A stretch of DNA of 31,058 bases. It comes from an uncultured Verrucomicrobiota bacterium. GTDB taxonomy: Bacteria > Verrucomicrobiota > Kiritimatiellia > CAIQIC01 > Lenti-01. The stretch lies in contig CALKWZ010000080.1 of the NCBI GenBank assembly GCA_938003985.1, forward strand, positions 1-31,058. The letters run 5' to 3'. The notes beneath the pieces are model-generated. The model searched no databases. It was not told the origin of the DNA and saw only the letters and a list, made by a program, of their open reading frames with translations. How positions within the stretch are numbered: the stretch's first letter is position 1; each line of letters opens with the position of its first letter. Below, in pieces: positions 12,380 to 18,719 of the stretch. Position numbers and translations under genes: made by a program.

Positions 12380-14959
12380 ATGAAGATGAACGTGAAATGG
12401 ATAATTGCCGGCCTCTGGATCGCGGGAGCGGCGATCGCTTCGGCGGAAGACCGGCTTTCGATCAAGGGTTCCGACACCTTCAGCCTGGAACTGGGGCTGC
12501 CGCTGATCTCCGCGTTCCGGGAAACGCATCCCGAAACGGCCATCGAATTGACGGGCCTCGGTTCCGCCTCCGGCATCGCCGAGCTGTTGGAAGACACCTG
12601 CGACCTGGCCGCCTCCACCCGTTCGCTGGACGAAACCGAGCAGCGCATGGCCCGGTCCAAGGGCGTCGATCTCAAGTCCGCCATCGCCGGCTACTACGGC
12701 CTGGCCGTCGTCGTGCACGCGGACAATCCGCTGAAGGATCTGTCCGACGCCGCCGTCCGCGACGTCTTCACCGGCAAGGCCACGAATTGGAAACAGGTCG
12801 GCGGTCCGGACAAGCCCATCGAGGTGCTGATCCGCGACGCCACCGGCGGCTCCCATCTGGGCTTCCGCGAACTGGCCATGGATGGCCGCGCCTATGCCGC
12901 CCACGCCCAAGGCTTCGCCAGCTTCGAGGAATTGGTCCAGGCCGTGGCTGACCGTCCCGGCGCCATCGGCTACGTCGAAATGAACCTGCGGGAACATCCC
13001 GGCCTGCACAAGGTCTCGGTCAATGGCATCCCGCCAAACGAAATCACCGTCCAGAAGGGCATCTATCCCTACGTCCAGCCCGTTTGGCTCTATGCCCGAG
13101 CCAAATCCGCCAATCCGGCCATCGAGCGGTTCATCCAGTTCGTCCGCTCCAAGCCCGGCCAGCGCGTCGTCGAAACCGTCGGTTTCGTGCCGGCCGACCT
13201 CATCCAGTTGGACGGCCGCGGCGTCTTCTTCCTGGTCTTCCAGGTGCTGGGCGGCTTGGCGCTGTTCATCTTCGGCATGAACATCATGACCGACGGCCTG
13301 CGCGAAGCCGCCGGCCAGAAGCTGCGCACCATCCTCTCCGTCATGACCACCCGCAAGCTGTCCGGCCTGGGCCTGGGCACGCTGATCGCCACGCTGGTCC
13401 ACAGCAGCGCCACCACCGTCATGGTCGTCGGGTTCATCAACGCCGGCCTGATGACGCTCGTGCAGGCGATCCCCGTCGTGCTGGGCGCCAACATCGGCAC
13501 CACGCTCTCCATGCAGGCGATCTCGTTCAAGCTGGGCGACTACGCCCTGTTCGCCGTCGCCACCGGCTTCATCGTCAGCATGGTCGCGAAGAATCCCAAG
13601 CACAAGAAGATCGGCCTGTCCTTCATGGGCTTCGGCCTGCTGTTCCTGGGCATGAACCTGATGAGCGACGCCATCAAGCCGCACCGCGAACTGCTCAAGC
13701 CCGTCATGGCCTCGATCAGCGGCGAAACGCCCAAGGGACTGATTCTCGGCATCCTGCTGGCCACGGCGCTGACCTCGATCATCCAGAGCAGCGGCGCCAC
13801 CATCGGCATGGCTTTCGCGCTCGTCACCGCCGGCGTGCTGACCAGCGTCGAACAGACCATGCCGATCATCCTCGGCGCGCACATCGGCACCTGCGCCACG
13901 GCCCTGCTGGGTTCCATCGGCACCAGCATGAACGCCAAGCGCTCCGCCTACGCCCATCTCATCTTCAATATCTTCAACGTGACCCTGGCCTCCCTGCTGA
14001 AGGGCCCGCTCGTGGCGCTGCTGGCCTGGATGTCGCCCGACAACGTGCTGCGCCAGTCCGCCAACCTGCACACGGTGGTCATGGTCGTCGCCGCCTTCCT
14101 CGTGTTGCCGTTTTCCGCCCCCTACGCCCGGCTGGTCACCCGCCTGTTCCGCAGCCGCAAGCCGGAACCCGAGCCCAGCTATCTCGACGACAAGCTGCTG
14201 GACTACCCCGAACAGGCCATCTGCGCGTGCATGCACGAACTCCAGCGCGTCGCCAAAACCTGCGCCAAGAGCCTGCGCCTCGCCGGCCAGACCATCCTCT
14301 TCGCCCAGACCCCGCAGGACATCCACGCCATCAAGCTCAACGAACAGATCGTCAACGACGTCAAGGCGGCCATGAAGGAATACCTCGCCCGCCTCACCCG
14401 CCGCTACCTTTCCAAGCGCCAGGCCATCCTGATCCAGCACCTCGACCGCTGCATGAGCGACCTCGAGCGCATCGGCGACCATATCGAGACCATCTGCAAC
14501 CTGTCCCTGCGCCGCCAGAAGGTCCCCGAAGCCGTCGTGGACAAGGAATCCTTCGACACCGCCTTCCGGCTCTACGAAAACGCCCTGCACCTCTTCAAGC
14601 TCGTCATCGACTCGCTCGACCCCGACCGCGAAAACTTCCAGGAAATCGCCCAGCAGATCCTGCAGGCCCGCGACCAGTACATGCAGGACAGCCTCAACAC
14701 CCGCGCCATGTTCACCGACAAGGTGTCCCAGCGCCTCATCACGCCCATCGCCGGCATCTTCTTCAGCGAATACATCGCCGCCCTCGACCGCATCGTCAAG
14801 CACTCCAAGACCATCGCGCTCGCCGAAAAGCAGCCGCAGTTCTGGATCAAACGCACCAAGCTCGGCAAGCACGTCGATTTCGCCCCCGAACTCGCGCTCC
14901 AGCCGCTCGTCGATCCCAAGGACTATCTCTCCCGCCTTCAGGCCGAAGACTACCTCTAG
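12380..14959 (+). CDS. Fusion protein: signal peptide + PstS-like phosphate-binding domain + Na/Pi cotransporter (NptA/YjbB family) + PhoU-like domain
   Basis: ATG at 12380 (AAAGGGA RBS); MKMNVKWIIAGLWIAGAAIASA signal. Residues ~25-272 are PstS/PBP-like (IKGSDT, GLGSASGI, AASTRSL, YGLAVVVHADNP, FTGKATNWKQVGG, GAIGYVE). From residue ~281 it is Na_Pi_cotrans (FQVLGGLALFIFGMNIMTDGLR, LGANIGTT, IQSSGATIGM, LGAHIGTC). The C-terminus has PhoU-type repeats (DLERIGDHIE). Confidence 0.85.
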   Translation: MKMNVKWIIAGLWIAGAAIASAEDRLSIKGSDTFSLELGLPLISAFRETHPETAIELTGLGSASGIAELLEDTCDLAASTRSLDETEQRMARSKGVDLKSAIAGYYGLAVVVHADNPLKDLSDAAVRDVFTGKATNWKQVGGPDKPIEVLIRDATGGSHLGFRELAMDGRAYAAHAQGFASFEELVQAVADRPGAIGYVEMNLREHPGLHKVSVNGIPPNEITVQKGIYPYVQPVWLYARAKSANPAIERFIQFVRSKPGQRVVETVGFVPADLIQLDGRGVFFLVFQVLGGLALFIFGMNIMTDGLREAAGQKLRTILSVMTTRKLSGLGLGTLIATLVHSSATTVMVVGFINAGLMTLVQAIPVVLGANIGTTLSMQAISFKLGDYALFAVATGFIVSMVAKNPKHKKIGLSFMGFGLLFLGMNLMSDAIKPHRELLKPVMASISGETPKGLILGILLATALTSIIQSSGATIGMAFALVTAGVLTSVEQTMPIILGAHIGTCATALLGSIGTSMNAKRSAYAHLIFNIFNVTLASLLKGPLVALLAWMSPDNVLRQSANLHTVVMVVAAFLVLPFSAPYARLVTRLFRSRKPEPEPSYLDDKLLDYPEQAICACMHELQRVAKTCAKSLRLAGQTILFAQTPQDIHAIKLNEQIVNDVKAAMKEYLARLTRRYLSKRQAILIQHLDRCMSDLERIGDHIETICNLSLRRQKVPEAVVDKESFDTAFRLYENALHLFKLVIDSLDPDRENFQEIAQQILQARDQYMQDSLNTRAMFTDKVSQRLITPIAGIFFSEYIAALDRIVKHSKTIALAEKQPQFWIKRTKLGKHVDFAPELALQPLVDPKDYLSRLQAEDYL

Positions 14960-18719: not shown

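Follow-up and report, generated by a model that had tools for sequence, protein, structure and literature searches.

A PstS-like domain fused to a Na/Pi-PhoU carrier next to arsenic genes in Kiritimatiellia: a proposed binding-domain-tethered phosphate symporter

Introduction

What does a PstS-like binding domain do when it is built into the same polypeptide as a sodium/inorganic phosphate (Na/Pi) carrier? This question is raised by a stretch of 31,058 nucleotides from an uncultured Verrucomicrobiota bacterium of the Kiritimatiellia (contig CALKWZ010000080.1 of assembly GCA_938003985.1), which we analysed over its full length and call the window. On its plus strand, directly after arsC and acr3, lie three tandem genes for Na/Pi carriers with a PhoU-like domain, named here P1, P2 and P3, the first of which encodes an additional N-terminal domain resembling the phosphate-binding protein PstS. 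An original prediction, drawn from the sequence alone, had suggested that P1 might be a binding-protein-assisted symporter providing arsenate-discriminating phosphate uptake beside arsenic resistance.

Here, we show that the design of P1, in which a periplasmic binding protein (PBP) domain, a Na/Pi core and a PhoU-like domain follow one another in one chain, is rare and undescribed. We propose, with a probability of roughly 0.6, that P1 acts as a phosphate symporter with a tethered binding domain and PhoU feedback, all in a single chain, and that it belongs to the bacterial NptA/YjbB-PhoU branch of SLC34. Homologous loci are designated below by L and homologous proteins by P followed by four digits.

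Results

The N-terminal domain of P1 resembles S-type phosphate-binding proteins

On P1, Pfam detects PBP_like_2 at amino acids (aa) 20-257 (E 3.7e-32; 112.6 bits for a cutoff of 27), followed by Na_Pi_cotrans twice (8e-53). No PBP match was obtained by Pfam in P2 or P3, and the signal peptide and the PstS-like domain are indeed limited to P1, as had been noticed at the outset. An n-h-c signal region is present in 29/29 fused homologues of our alignment A1, with an AxA-type site in nearly all of them; in the AlphaFold2 (AF2) model it forms a helix (5-18) with a low predicted local distance difference test score (pLDDT).

The resemblance to PstS holds both in sequence and in fold, the top matches all being solved phosphate-binding proteins. 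The best sequence relatives in the PDB, with E-values of 1e-19 to 3e-26, include the proteins of C. perfringens (4gd5/4q8r), V. cholerae (1twy) and Synechocystis (Sll0540, 9l8j), and S. pneumoniae PstS1 and Borrelia PstS were also retrieved by sequence. With Foldseek, the top 39 matches are all phosphate-binding proteins, with a TM-score (TMt) of up to 0.83. The AF2 model has a mean pLDDT of 84.3 over P1 and of ~85-95 over the PBP region. The TIGR00975 profile gave 33.7 bits on this domain and did not reach its cutoff of 205.

We mapped the nine phosphate-contacting positions of C. perfringens PBP-1 (4Q8R; PMC5381212) onto P1, and 7/9 are identical or conservative, the arginine included. Ser11, Ser41, Arg125 and Gly130 correspond to identical residues (S31, S62, R152 and G157), Ser13, Ser59 and Thr131 are replaced conservatively (T33, T80 and S158), and only Thr12 (D32) and Ser129 (G156) are changed. 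We considered D32 as a marker of a non-phosphate ligand and rejected it, GSDT being common among ordinary S-type PstS homologues. The position of the aspartate that forms the low-barrier hydrogen bond in the high-selectivity D-type PstS (E. coli, PfluDING type) is occupied by Thr80 in P1, and by Ser or Thr across the clade. Since this is also the case in the S-type proteins PBP-1 and SphX, the P1 domain is classed as an S-type PBP. Its ligand is probably a tetrahedral oxyanion, with phosphate as the most probable one.

The fusion is genuine and rare

The PBP domain is tethered straight to the carrier, as first predicted: the junction (aa 273-281) contains neither a stop codon nor an intervening transmembrane helix (TM). 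This linker has a low pLDDT at 275-277, and its length is kept in all fused homologues. The 859-aa architecture occurs in ~59 clusters at the 90% identity level, which share 49-100% identity and come from independent ENA, NCBI, JGI and Logan assemblies; the named clusters are metagenome-assembled genomes (MAGs) of Kiritimatiellia. In a scan of GTDB with one genome per species, we found 79 loci with relatives of the P1 PBP, 11 of which are in-frame fusions. All eleven stem from Kiritimatiellia/Verrucomicrobiota MAGs and none from an isolate.

MAG contigs can hold errors in general, and a lost stop codon or an assembly chimera might have merged a pstS gene with a transporter gene. We found nothing specific in favour of such an artefact and consider its likelihood negligible: frame, linker and length are the same in the ~59 clusters and the 11 species genomes, the linker is conserved across fused homologues, and the AF2 model of P1 is continuous and confident. 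The recurrence across independent assemblies and species genomes thus rules out a frameshift or assembly error.

The suspicion that a binding domain tethered to such a carrier is rare was also borne out. When 1.84 billion cluster representatives were searched exhaustively with HMMER using aa 1-450 of P1, that is, the PBP and the first transporter repeat, one representative covered both parts and it belongs to the P1 family; the remaining matches covered one part each only. On this ground, the idea that the architecture is common was rejected; other long Na/Pi-PhoU proteins bear Ig-like or other periplasmic domains and not PBPs. Finally, no described PstS-Na/Pi fusion was found in open-access papers and preprints.

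Three Na/Pi-PhoU paralogs in tandem

Encoded on one strand, the paralogs measure 859, 585 and 612 aa; in each of them Na_Pi_cotrans occurs twice and is followed by a PhoU-like domain. The motifs listed in the original prediction, FQVLGGLALFIFGM, IQSSGATIGM, GAHIGTC, ERIGDH and the C-terminal VDPxxY/F, were all recovered. By their profile scores, P1-P3 belong to the Na/Pi symporter family: PF02690 (Na_Pi_cotrans) matches two stretches in each, with 178.6, 158.8 and 149.3 bits for P1, P2 and P3 (cutoff 29.1), and the NCBIfam model NF037997 (Na_Pi_symport) gives 187, 144 and 136 bits (cutoff 50). The hypothetical equivalog TIGR00704 (NaPi_cotrn_rel) does not reach its cutoff of 210.1 bits in any of the three (199.4, 152.3 and 159.6).

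Their cores are 57% (P1-P2), 46% (P1-P3) and 45% (P2-P3) identical. The mechanical open reading frame (ORF) of P3 starts at TTG 16806 and encodes 637 aa; GTG 16881 is the most likely start, because the resulting MNPSEIV parallels MDGSTLF of P2 and the ortholog in L008/L009 was called at 611 aa. The ordered triad of P1-type, P2-type and P3-type genes is also found in L008/L009, L016, L018 and L024. In L002 (11667-14277), the fusion is followed by a call for a 109-aa Na_Pi_cotrans fragment and then by an overlapping 779-aa Na/Pi-PhoU gene, an arrangement that may reflect a frameshift or a rearranged paralog.

The core is of SLC34 type with an outward-facing N-terminus

The P1 core is homologous to the SLC34A2a structures 9z60/9z64 (E 1.6e-13), with both repeats aligned. 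From the AF2 model and the layout of SLC34A2, we placed the helices and hairpins (HP) of the first half at 279-311 (TM1), 326-354 (HP1), 360-382 (TM2) and 385-402 (TM3), and those of the second half at 406-444 (TM4), 451-483 (HP2), 490-511 (TM5) and 517-551 (TM6); a single TM7 (556-589) then leads into the PhoU-like bundle. The motifs of the Pi site in P1 and P2 are VHSSA, GANIGTT, IQSSG and GAHIGTC. They are similar but not identical to the QSSS of SLC34A2, the glutamine of HP1 being replaced by His and the third serine by Ala or Gly. The P3 lineage, including P0074, has AHSGA or AHTGA in HP1 and ITSSG or MTSSG in HP2 instead of VHSSA and IQSSG, which suggests an altered substrate specificity or ion coupling.

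The cryo-electron microscopy structures of SLC34A2 (NaPi-IIb; 9z60-9z66) display the order TM1-HP1-TM2-TM3 / TM4-HP2-TM5-TM6 / TM7-8 (bioRxiv 10.64898/2026.05.25.727688). SLC34A2 has 8 TM and both termini inside, it lacks a PhoU domain, and its TM3 and TM4 are separated by a large extracellular domain. In the bacterial proteins, which have 7 TM and the N-terminus outside, a short K-rich loop (KNPKHKK) joins these two helices. The N-terminus must lie outside since seven crossings separate it from a cytoplasmic PhoU domain. The distribution of charges agrees with this: over 54 homologues, the K+R averages are 4.96, 3.15, 2.0 and 3.35 in the predicted cytoplasmic loops and 0.70, 0.74, 0.09 and 0.96 in the predicted periplasmic ones, the exception being one charge-balanced amphipathic helix. 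Unfused members carry a 5-residue acidic tail immediately ahead of TM1. Altogether, helix counts and charge bias indicate that the bacterial PhoU-bearing Na/Pi cores are probably inverted in the membrane relative to SLC34A2.

The outward N-terminus imposed by the fusion had been regarded as unexpected if the core resembles N-in models of SLC34. Charge bias, acidic tails and other extracytoplasmic N-terminal domains mark it as a family-wide trait. As this orientation, with 7 TM and 2 hairpins, is native to the PhoU-bearing bacterial branch, the fusion is not surprising in this respect.

Periplasmic N-terminal modules elsewhere in the family, introduced by a signal peptide or a lipobox, comprise Ig-like, lipoprotein-anchored and helical domains. 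The Na/Pi-PhoU proteins P0235, P0266 and P0191 have Big_1 Ig-like domains at the position of the P1 PBP, P0220 and P0188 have N-terminal domains with a lipobox, and P0131 and P0172 carry further N-terminal modules. Decorating the outward-facing N-terminus is thus a wider, unstudied theme among bacterial Na/Pi-PhoU carriers.

At the other end of P1, the AF2 model contains six long helices (610-816) with pLDDT of 80-95, and the DLERIGDH motif and the C-terminal tail are kept in the A1 consensus. Pfam PhoU (PF01895) scores 22.4 bits on P1, just under its cutoff of 23.5, and 25.7 and 30.5 bits on P2 and P3, both over it; TIGR02135 (PhoU) gives only 16-23 bits on P1-P3 for a cutoff of 130. By these scores the C-terminal domain is PhoU-like and not a PhoU equivalog.

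The PBP module has moved between core lineages

In the tree of the cores, fused and unfused proteins are interleaved. In the tree of the PBPs, the fused PBPs form one clade whatever their core type, with a truncated gene call as the sole exception, and their sister clade consists of stand-alone PBPs at ~60% identity. Several proteins combine parts of different lineages. P0053 (861 aa) joins a PBP 94% identical to that of P1 to a membrane core 97% identical to that of P2, with a crossover inside TM1 (...LALFIFGM|GIMSDGLRV), just downstream of the linker. Together with P0055 (also 861 aa), it represents chimeras whose PBP is 91-94% identical to the P1 type and whose core is 91-97% identical to the P2 type, which therefore points to unequal recombination between tandem paralogs. 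In P0074 the core behind the PBP is of the P3 type (83% identical). P0077 has a P2-like membrane part combined with a PhoU part like that of P1, and P0060 and P0063 have P1-type cores (85-88% identical) without PBP.

The simplest reading of these trees and chimeras is that the fusion took place once, after which tandem paralogs recombined at the conserved TM1 and the PBP was occasionally lost. The source of the PBP would be an orphan lineage sitting directly after acr3 in ars operons, and the domain would later have moved onto all three core lineages. Because monophyletic PBPs occur on P1-, P2- and P3-type cores, the module appears to be kept by selection on different cores.

The transporter genes have their own promoter-like elements

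Upstream of the fusion gene, an element of the TTGACA-N18-GAT(G/T)AT type is conserved ~45 nt before the ATG (alignment A3). TTGACA and GAxxAT are invariant in the 11 loci compared (the window, L002, L008, L013-L016, L019, L022, L024 and L025), and the element is kept with or without ars genes upstream. The window copy, with its weaker -10, was missed by the consensus scan. A block, CTTCTTTTG, is conserved in the spacer of this element, and the spacer may serve as an operator for some regulator. P2 has a promoter-like site of its own (Table 1). Judging from these elements, the transporter genes seem to be transcribed independently. Terminator-like sites are at chance level, with 9 observed for 7.3 expected. 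Co-transcription with ars as a full account of the arrangement was considered and is weakened by this context-independent promoter and by the fused loci that lack ars genes.

Gene neighbourhood and the arsenic link

The co-location with arsenic genes, on which the original prediction partly relied, stands as a recurrent feature, with acr3 within 10 kb of the fusion in 4/11 GTDB fused loci as well as in the window and in L008. It is partial, as no acr3 is found within 10 kb at the other 7/11; the fusion gene has its own conserved promoter. In L002, acr3 lies 3 kb upstream of the fusion, with DsbD-type and glycosyltransferase genes between. Two fusion orthologs, at 60% and 49% identity, are solitary and stand in unrelated contexts, and an unfused P1-type ortholog is likewise located downstream of an ars operon.

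The link is tighter for the sister stand-alone PBPs, which are orphan genes located 4-139 bp after acr3 (L020, L021, L013 and L008). The order is arsR-arsC-(arsM-like)-acr3-PBP in L020, L021 and L010, and acr3, stand-alone PBP, fusion in L008/L009 and L013, with a histidine kinase/response regulator pair between the PBP and the fusion in L008/L009. Even in the distant L036, whose Acr3 and PBP are 32% and 43% identical to those of the window, the two genes form a pair with a 4-bp gap. No PstB signature was present in the flanks of 68 stand-alone PBP-clade loci. We found no description of a PstS-like gene as an accessory of ars operons. As far as gene neighbourhood goes, the arsenic link is thus real, and it is strongest for the PBP lineage.

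Most of the stand-alone PBP_like_2 relatives in Verrucomicrobiota, at 35-48% identity (L029-L091, ~60 loci), have no PstB signature, Na/Pi carrier or ars gene within 10 kb. Profile scans found no pstCAB in the window. In L018, a separate, convergent pstC-pstA-pstB-phoU operon (16426-20492, minus strand) lies immediately after the fusion-P2-P3 triad, and in L001 phoU-pstB is found a few kb downstream of the unfused ortholog.

Within the ars operon of the window (8855-12250) is embedded a pair of mercury-methylation genes, hgcA and an hgcB-like gene. ArsR-type control of hgcAB and a link to arsenic were reportedly proposed in a 2022 bioRxiv preprint, and the arrangement in the window fits. Further upstream are other arsenic and redox genes, encoding an ArsP-type permease (5384-6760, plus strand) and a thioredoxin (7016-7612, plus strand). 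Downstream of P3 (18867-22302), diphosphomevalonate decarboxylase and two GHMP kinases of the mevalonate pathway are encoded on the minus strand, followed by DciA on the plus strand.

Table 1. Positions of the features discussed, in the window unless a locus is given
Feature	Position	Strand	Description
Promoter-like site upstream of arsR	8787-8815		consensus scan
arsR	8855-9214	+	ArsR/SmtB, 91 bits, cutoff 55
hgcA	about 9214/9238-10224	+	NCBIfam HgcA_corrinoid, 394 bits, cutoff 275; cap-helix motif NVWCAAGEG
hgcB-like ferredoxin	10226-10541	+	2x[4Fe-4S], C-terminal CC tail; no NCBIfam match
arsC	10538-10969	+	Trx-type ArsC, 153 bits, below cutoff 174
acr3	11039-12250	+	367 bits, cutoff 283
Sigma70-type promoter-like element of P1	12310-12339	+	TTGACA 12310-12315, 18-nt spacer, GACGAT 12334-12339
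P1 ORF	12380-14959	+	859 aa from MKMNVKW
P1 predicted signal peptide	12380-12445	+	aa 1-22, MKMNVKWIIAGLWIAGAAIASA; A-S-A cleavage motif, no lipobox Cys; read from sequence
P1 periplasmic S-type PstS-like substrate-binding domain	12446-13195	+	aa 23-272; Pfam, PDB sequence, Foldseek
P1 linker, PBP to TM1	13196-13222	+	aa 273-281, DLIQLDGRG; 9 residues
P1 Na/Pi-cotransporter core	13223-14149	+	aa 282-590; TM1-HP1-TM2-TM3 / TM4-HP2-TM5-TM6 / TM7
P1 PhoU-like helical domain and C-terminal tail	14177-14956	+	aa ~600-816, DLERIGDH; tail QPQFWIK...LVDPKDYLSRL
Promoter-like site of P2	14991-15019	+	TTGACG-17-GAGAAT; one of only two sigma70-like matches in 8400-19200
P2, unfused Na/Pi-PhoU paralog	15047-16804	+	585 aa; 5-residue acidic N-tail MDGST ahead of TM1
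P3, unfused Na/Pi-PhoU paralog	16881-18719	+	612 aa from GTG 16881
acr3-orphan PBP pair, L020	8628-10700
acr3-orphan PBP pair, L021	8399-10789
acr3-orphan PBP pair, L010	6570-8855
acr3-orphan PBP pair, L036	4757-6937
acr3-orphan PBP pair, L008	53-2240

Discussion

A tethered phosphate symporter as the proposed function

We propose the following mechanism for P1. The cleavable signal peptide would export the S-type PstS-like Venus-flytrap domain to the periplasm, where the 9-residue linker would hold it at the N-terminal end of TM1, which faces outward. The tethered PBP may capture phosphate and hand it to the periplasmic vestibule of the carrier, next to TM1, whose 7-TM, 2-hairpin core appears to retain the SLC34 phosphate-site signature. 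Such a hand-over would raise the effective affinity and add a second selectivity step against arsenate. On the other side of the membrane, the PhoU-like bundle may exert feedback on transport and/or Pho signalling, as in NptA of S. aureus, a proven Pi importer in which the PhoU domain tunes import, Pi homeostasis and PhoPR signalling (PMC13170248). P2 and P3 would be unfused paralogs with their own promoters, offering alternative kinetics or specificity. In favour of this proposal, the homology of the core extends to a phosphate importer, SLC34A2, whose QSSS-type and GxNIGT motifs it largely keeps, and in L018 the triad abuts a canonical pst-phoU operon. We infer phosphate as the ligand, the import direction, the hand-over from PBP to core and any benefit against arsenate.

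Several observations weigh against the tethered symporter. The P1 PBP scores below the cutoff of the PstS family (TIGR02136, 163.6 vs 206.6 bits), and in its RDATGG loop, a feature restricted to the fused and the closest stand-alone/acr3-linked clades, Gly replaces the phosphate-contacting Ser129. Characterised S-type PBPs are the least arsenate-selective, at about 150-200-fold (PMC5381212), and they bind phosphate with micromolar, not nanomolar, affinity (PMC13614923). The original prediction had reasoned from high-affinity PstS proteins as the main discriminators against arsenate; given these modest S-type properties, that argument does not transfer directly and the discrimination rationale is weakened. 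The AF2 model has a predicted TM-score (pTM) of only 0.51, so that the PBP is not confidently docked on the core. Moreover, P0060 (88% identical membrane core), P2 and P3 all lack the PBP domain, which must be dispensable for the core since close relatives and both paralogs do without it. Finally, neither a Pho box nor an ArsR operator was identified at P1-P3, and the region upstream of arsR shares no k-mers of at least 9 nt with the upstream regions of P1, P2 or P3.

Alternative roles of the binding domain

The PBP could act as a sensor or gate instead of a delivery device. In such a "transceptor", it would report external phosphate and gate the carrier, or address a two-component system by way of the PhoU-like domain, and P1 would correspond, in one polypeptide, to the signalling complex of PstS, PstCAB and PhoU. 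In S. aureus NptA, PhoPR is indeed modulated by the PhoU domain (PMC13170248). TM1, to which the PBP of P1 is joined, forms part of the mobile gate domain in SLC34A2 (bioRxiv 10.64898/2026.05.25.727688), and the cores of close relatives presumably work without a PBP. The two-component genes that lie between PBP and fusion in L008/L009 also fit, but neither the window nor most of the fused loci contain such genes, and the known fusions of substrate-binding domains with transporters (ATP-binding cassette (ABC), TAXI-GltS) are all read as serving substrate delivery (PMC12344293). We regard this role as unlikely while giving it some weight, and note that sensing and delivery are compatible with each other.

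The neighbourhood of the sister PBPs raises another possibility, namely that the ligand of the ars-linked clade is arsenate, or some oxyanion other than phosphate, and that the fusion handles As(V), for example by sequestering it, sensing it or taking it up for reduction by ArsC and export by Acr3. The orphans placed 4-139 bp after acr3, an arrangement that recurs in the distant L036, the lack of a PstB signature near any of the stand-alone PBP loci and the poor discrimination of arsenate by S-type PBPs would all agree with it, and the clade-specific replacement of Ser129 by Gly could widen the pocket. Yet importing arsenate would be harmful, with no known benefit here, the core retains the SLC34 phosphate-site signature, and the promoter of the fusion is conserved irrespective of the ars context. 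Seven of the eleven fused loci lack acr3 within 10 kb, and one fusion lies beside pstCAB-phoU. This reading thus appears slightly less plausible again than a sensor. The apparent inversion of the bacterial core relative to the importer SLC34A2 could instead be taken to indicate an exporter, as proposed for E. coli YjbB, with the PBP capping the periplasmic side or trapping the product as phosphate (or arsenate) leaves. Since inverted-repeat carriers are in principle symmetric, the direction of transport does not follow from their orientation; S. aureus NptA, of the same architecture, imports Pi, and no exporter is known to carry a high-affinity binding domain on its trans side. Export therefore seems to us improbable.

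Comparison with known systems

P1 has the two Na_Pi_cotrans repeats and, behind them, the cytoplasmic PhoU-like domain of the NptA/E. coli YjbB group. It differs by its signal peptide and 250-aa PstS-like domain, no described member of the group having a periplasmic substrate-binding domain. The core shares with SLC34A2 the homologous inverted repeats, in which QSSS-type hairpin tips and GxNIGT helices form the Pi site of SLC34A2. P1 would share with PstSCAB-PhoU a periplasmic phosphate binder, homologous to S-type PstS, a membrane translocator and a PhoU regulator; unlike it, P1 would be energised by an ion gradient and not by ATP, has no PstC/A/B homologues and consists of one chain. A separate canonical pstCAB-phoU exists in relatives.

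The closest analogue in design is TAXI-GltS, described in 2025 as the third class of secondary transporter that depends on a substrate-binding protein (SBP), after TRAP and TTT (PMC12344293). Rare N-terminal SBP fusions were key evidence in that work, whose authors asked why SBPs are absent from other carriers (PMC12344293). As in TAXI-GltS (BP0403/GltS of B. pertussis, Lachnospiraceae fusions), an SBP has been recruited to a Na+-coupled carrier outside TRAP and TTT, the SBP is N-terminal and the carrier C-terminal, and related genomes contain fused as well as split forms. The parts are different, since P1 combines PstS/PBP_like_2 and not TAXI with SLC34/NptA and not GltS, would handle phosphate and not glutamate, and has an extra cytoplasmic PhoU domain. 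P1 shares the coupling of an SBP to a secondary carrier, as an in-frame fusion in 11 species, but Pfam finds only Na_Pi_cotrans and PBP_like_2, with no match to DctQM, TctAB, GltS, DctP, TAXI or TctC. It is thus an analogue and not a member of TRAP, TTT and TAXI-GltS. The host is diderm and could therefore retain the SBP without a tether.

That arsenic genes can be linked to dedicated phosphate uptake, as the original prediction supposed, has a precedent in Agrobacterium. In A. tumefaciens 5A, pstS1-pstCAB1-phoU1-phoB1 lies next to ars1 and is induced by As(III) and repressed by ArsR1 (PMC7965956). The window likewise has a dedicated phosphate-uptake system, as we propose, beside ars genes. 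The Agrobacterium locus encodes a classical ABC system in Proteobacteria, whereas a secondary carrier and orphan PBPs are found here in Verrucomicrobiota.

Going beyond P1, we tentatively extend the proposal to the whole PBP lineage, in a form that we would expect to fail sooner than to hold. PstS-type PBPs, whether fused or acr3-linked orphans, might partner NptA/SLC34-type carriers, the orphans serving unfused paralogs, and arsenic-exposed anaerobes might thereby gain ATP-independent, arsenate-filtered phosphate.

With its design, P1 may stand for one more class of secondary transporters assisted by a binding protein. If so, the principle of coupling an SBP to a secondary carrier would come to include an inorganic anion, another fold and the SLC34 family, which is relevant to human disease and whose first structures have only just come out. 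P1 would provide a natural single-chain construct of binder, carrier and PhoU domain for studying the coupling of SBPs to carriers, and could be used to address the orientation of bacterial versus eukaryotic SLC34 proteins and the selectivity between phosphate and arsenate in arsenic-rich anoxic habitats.

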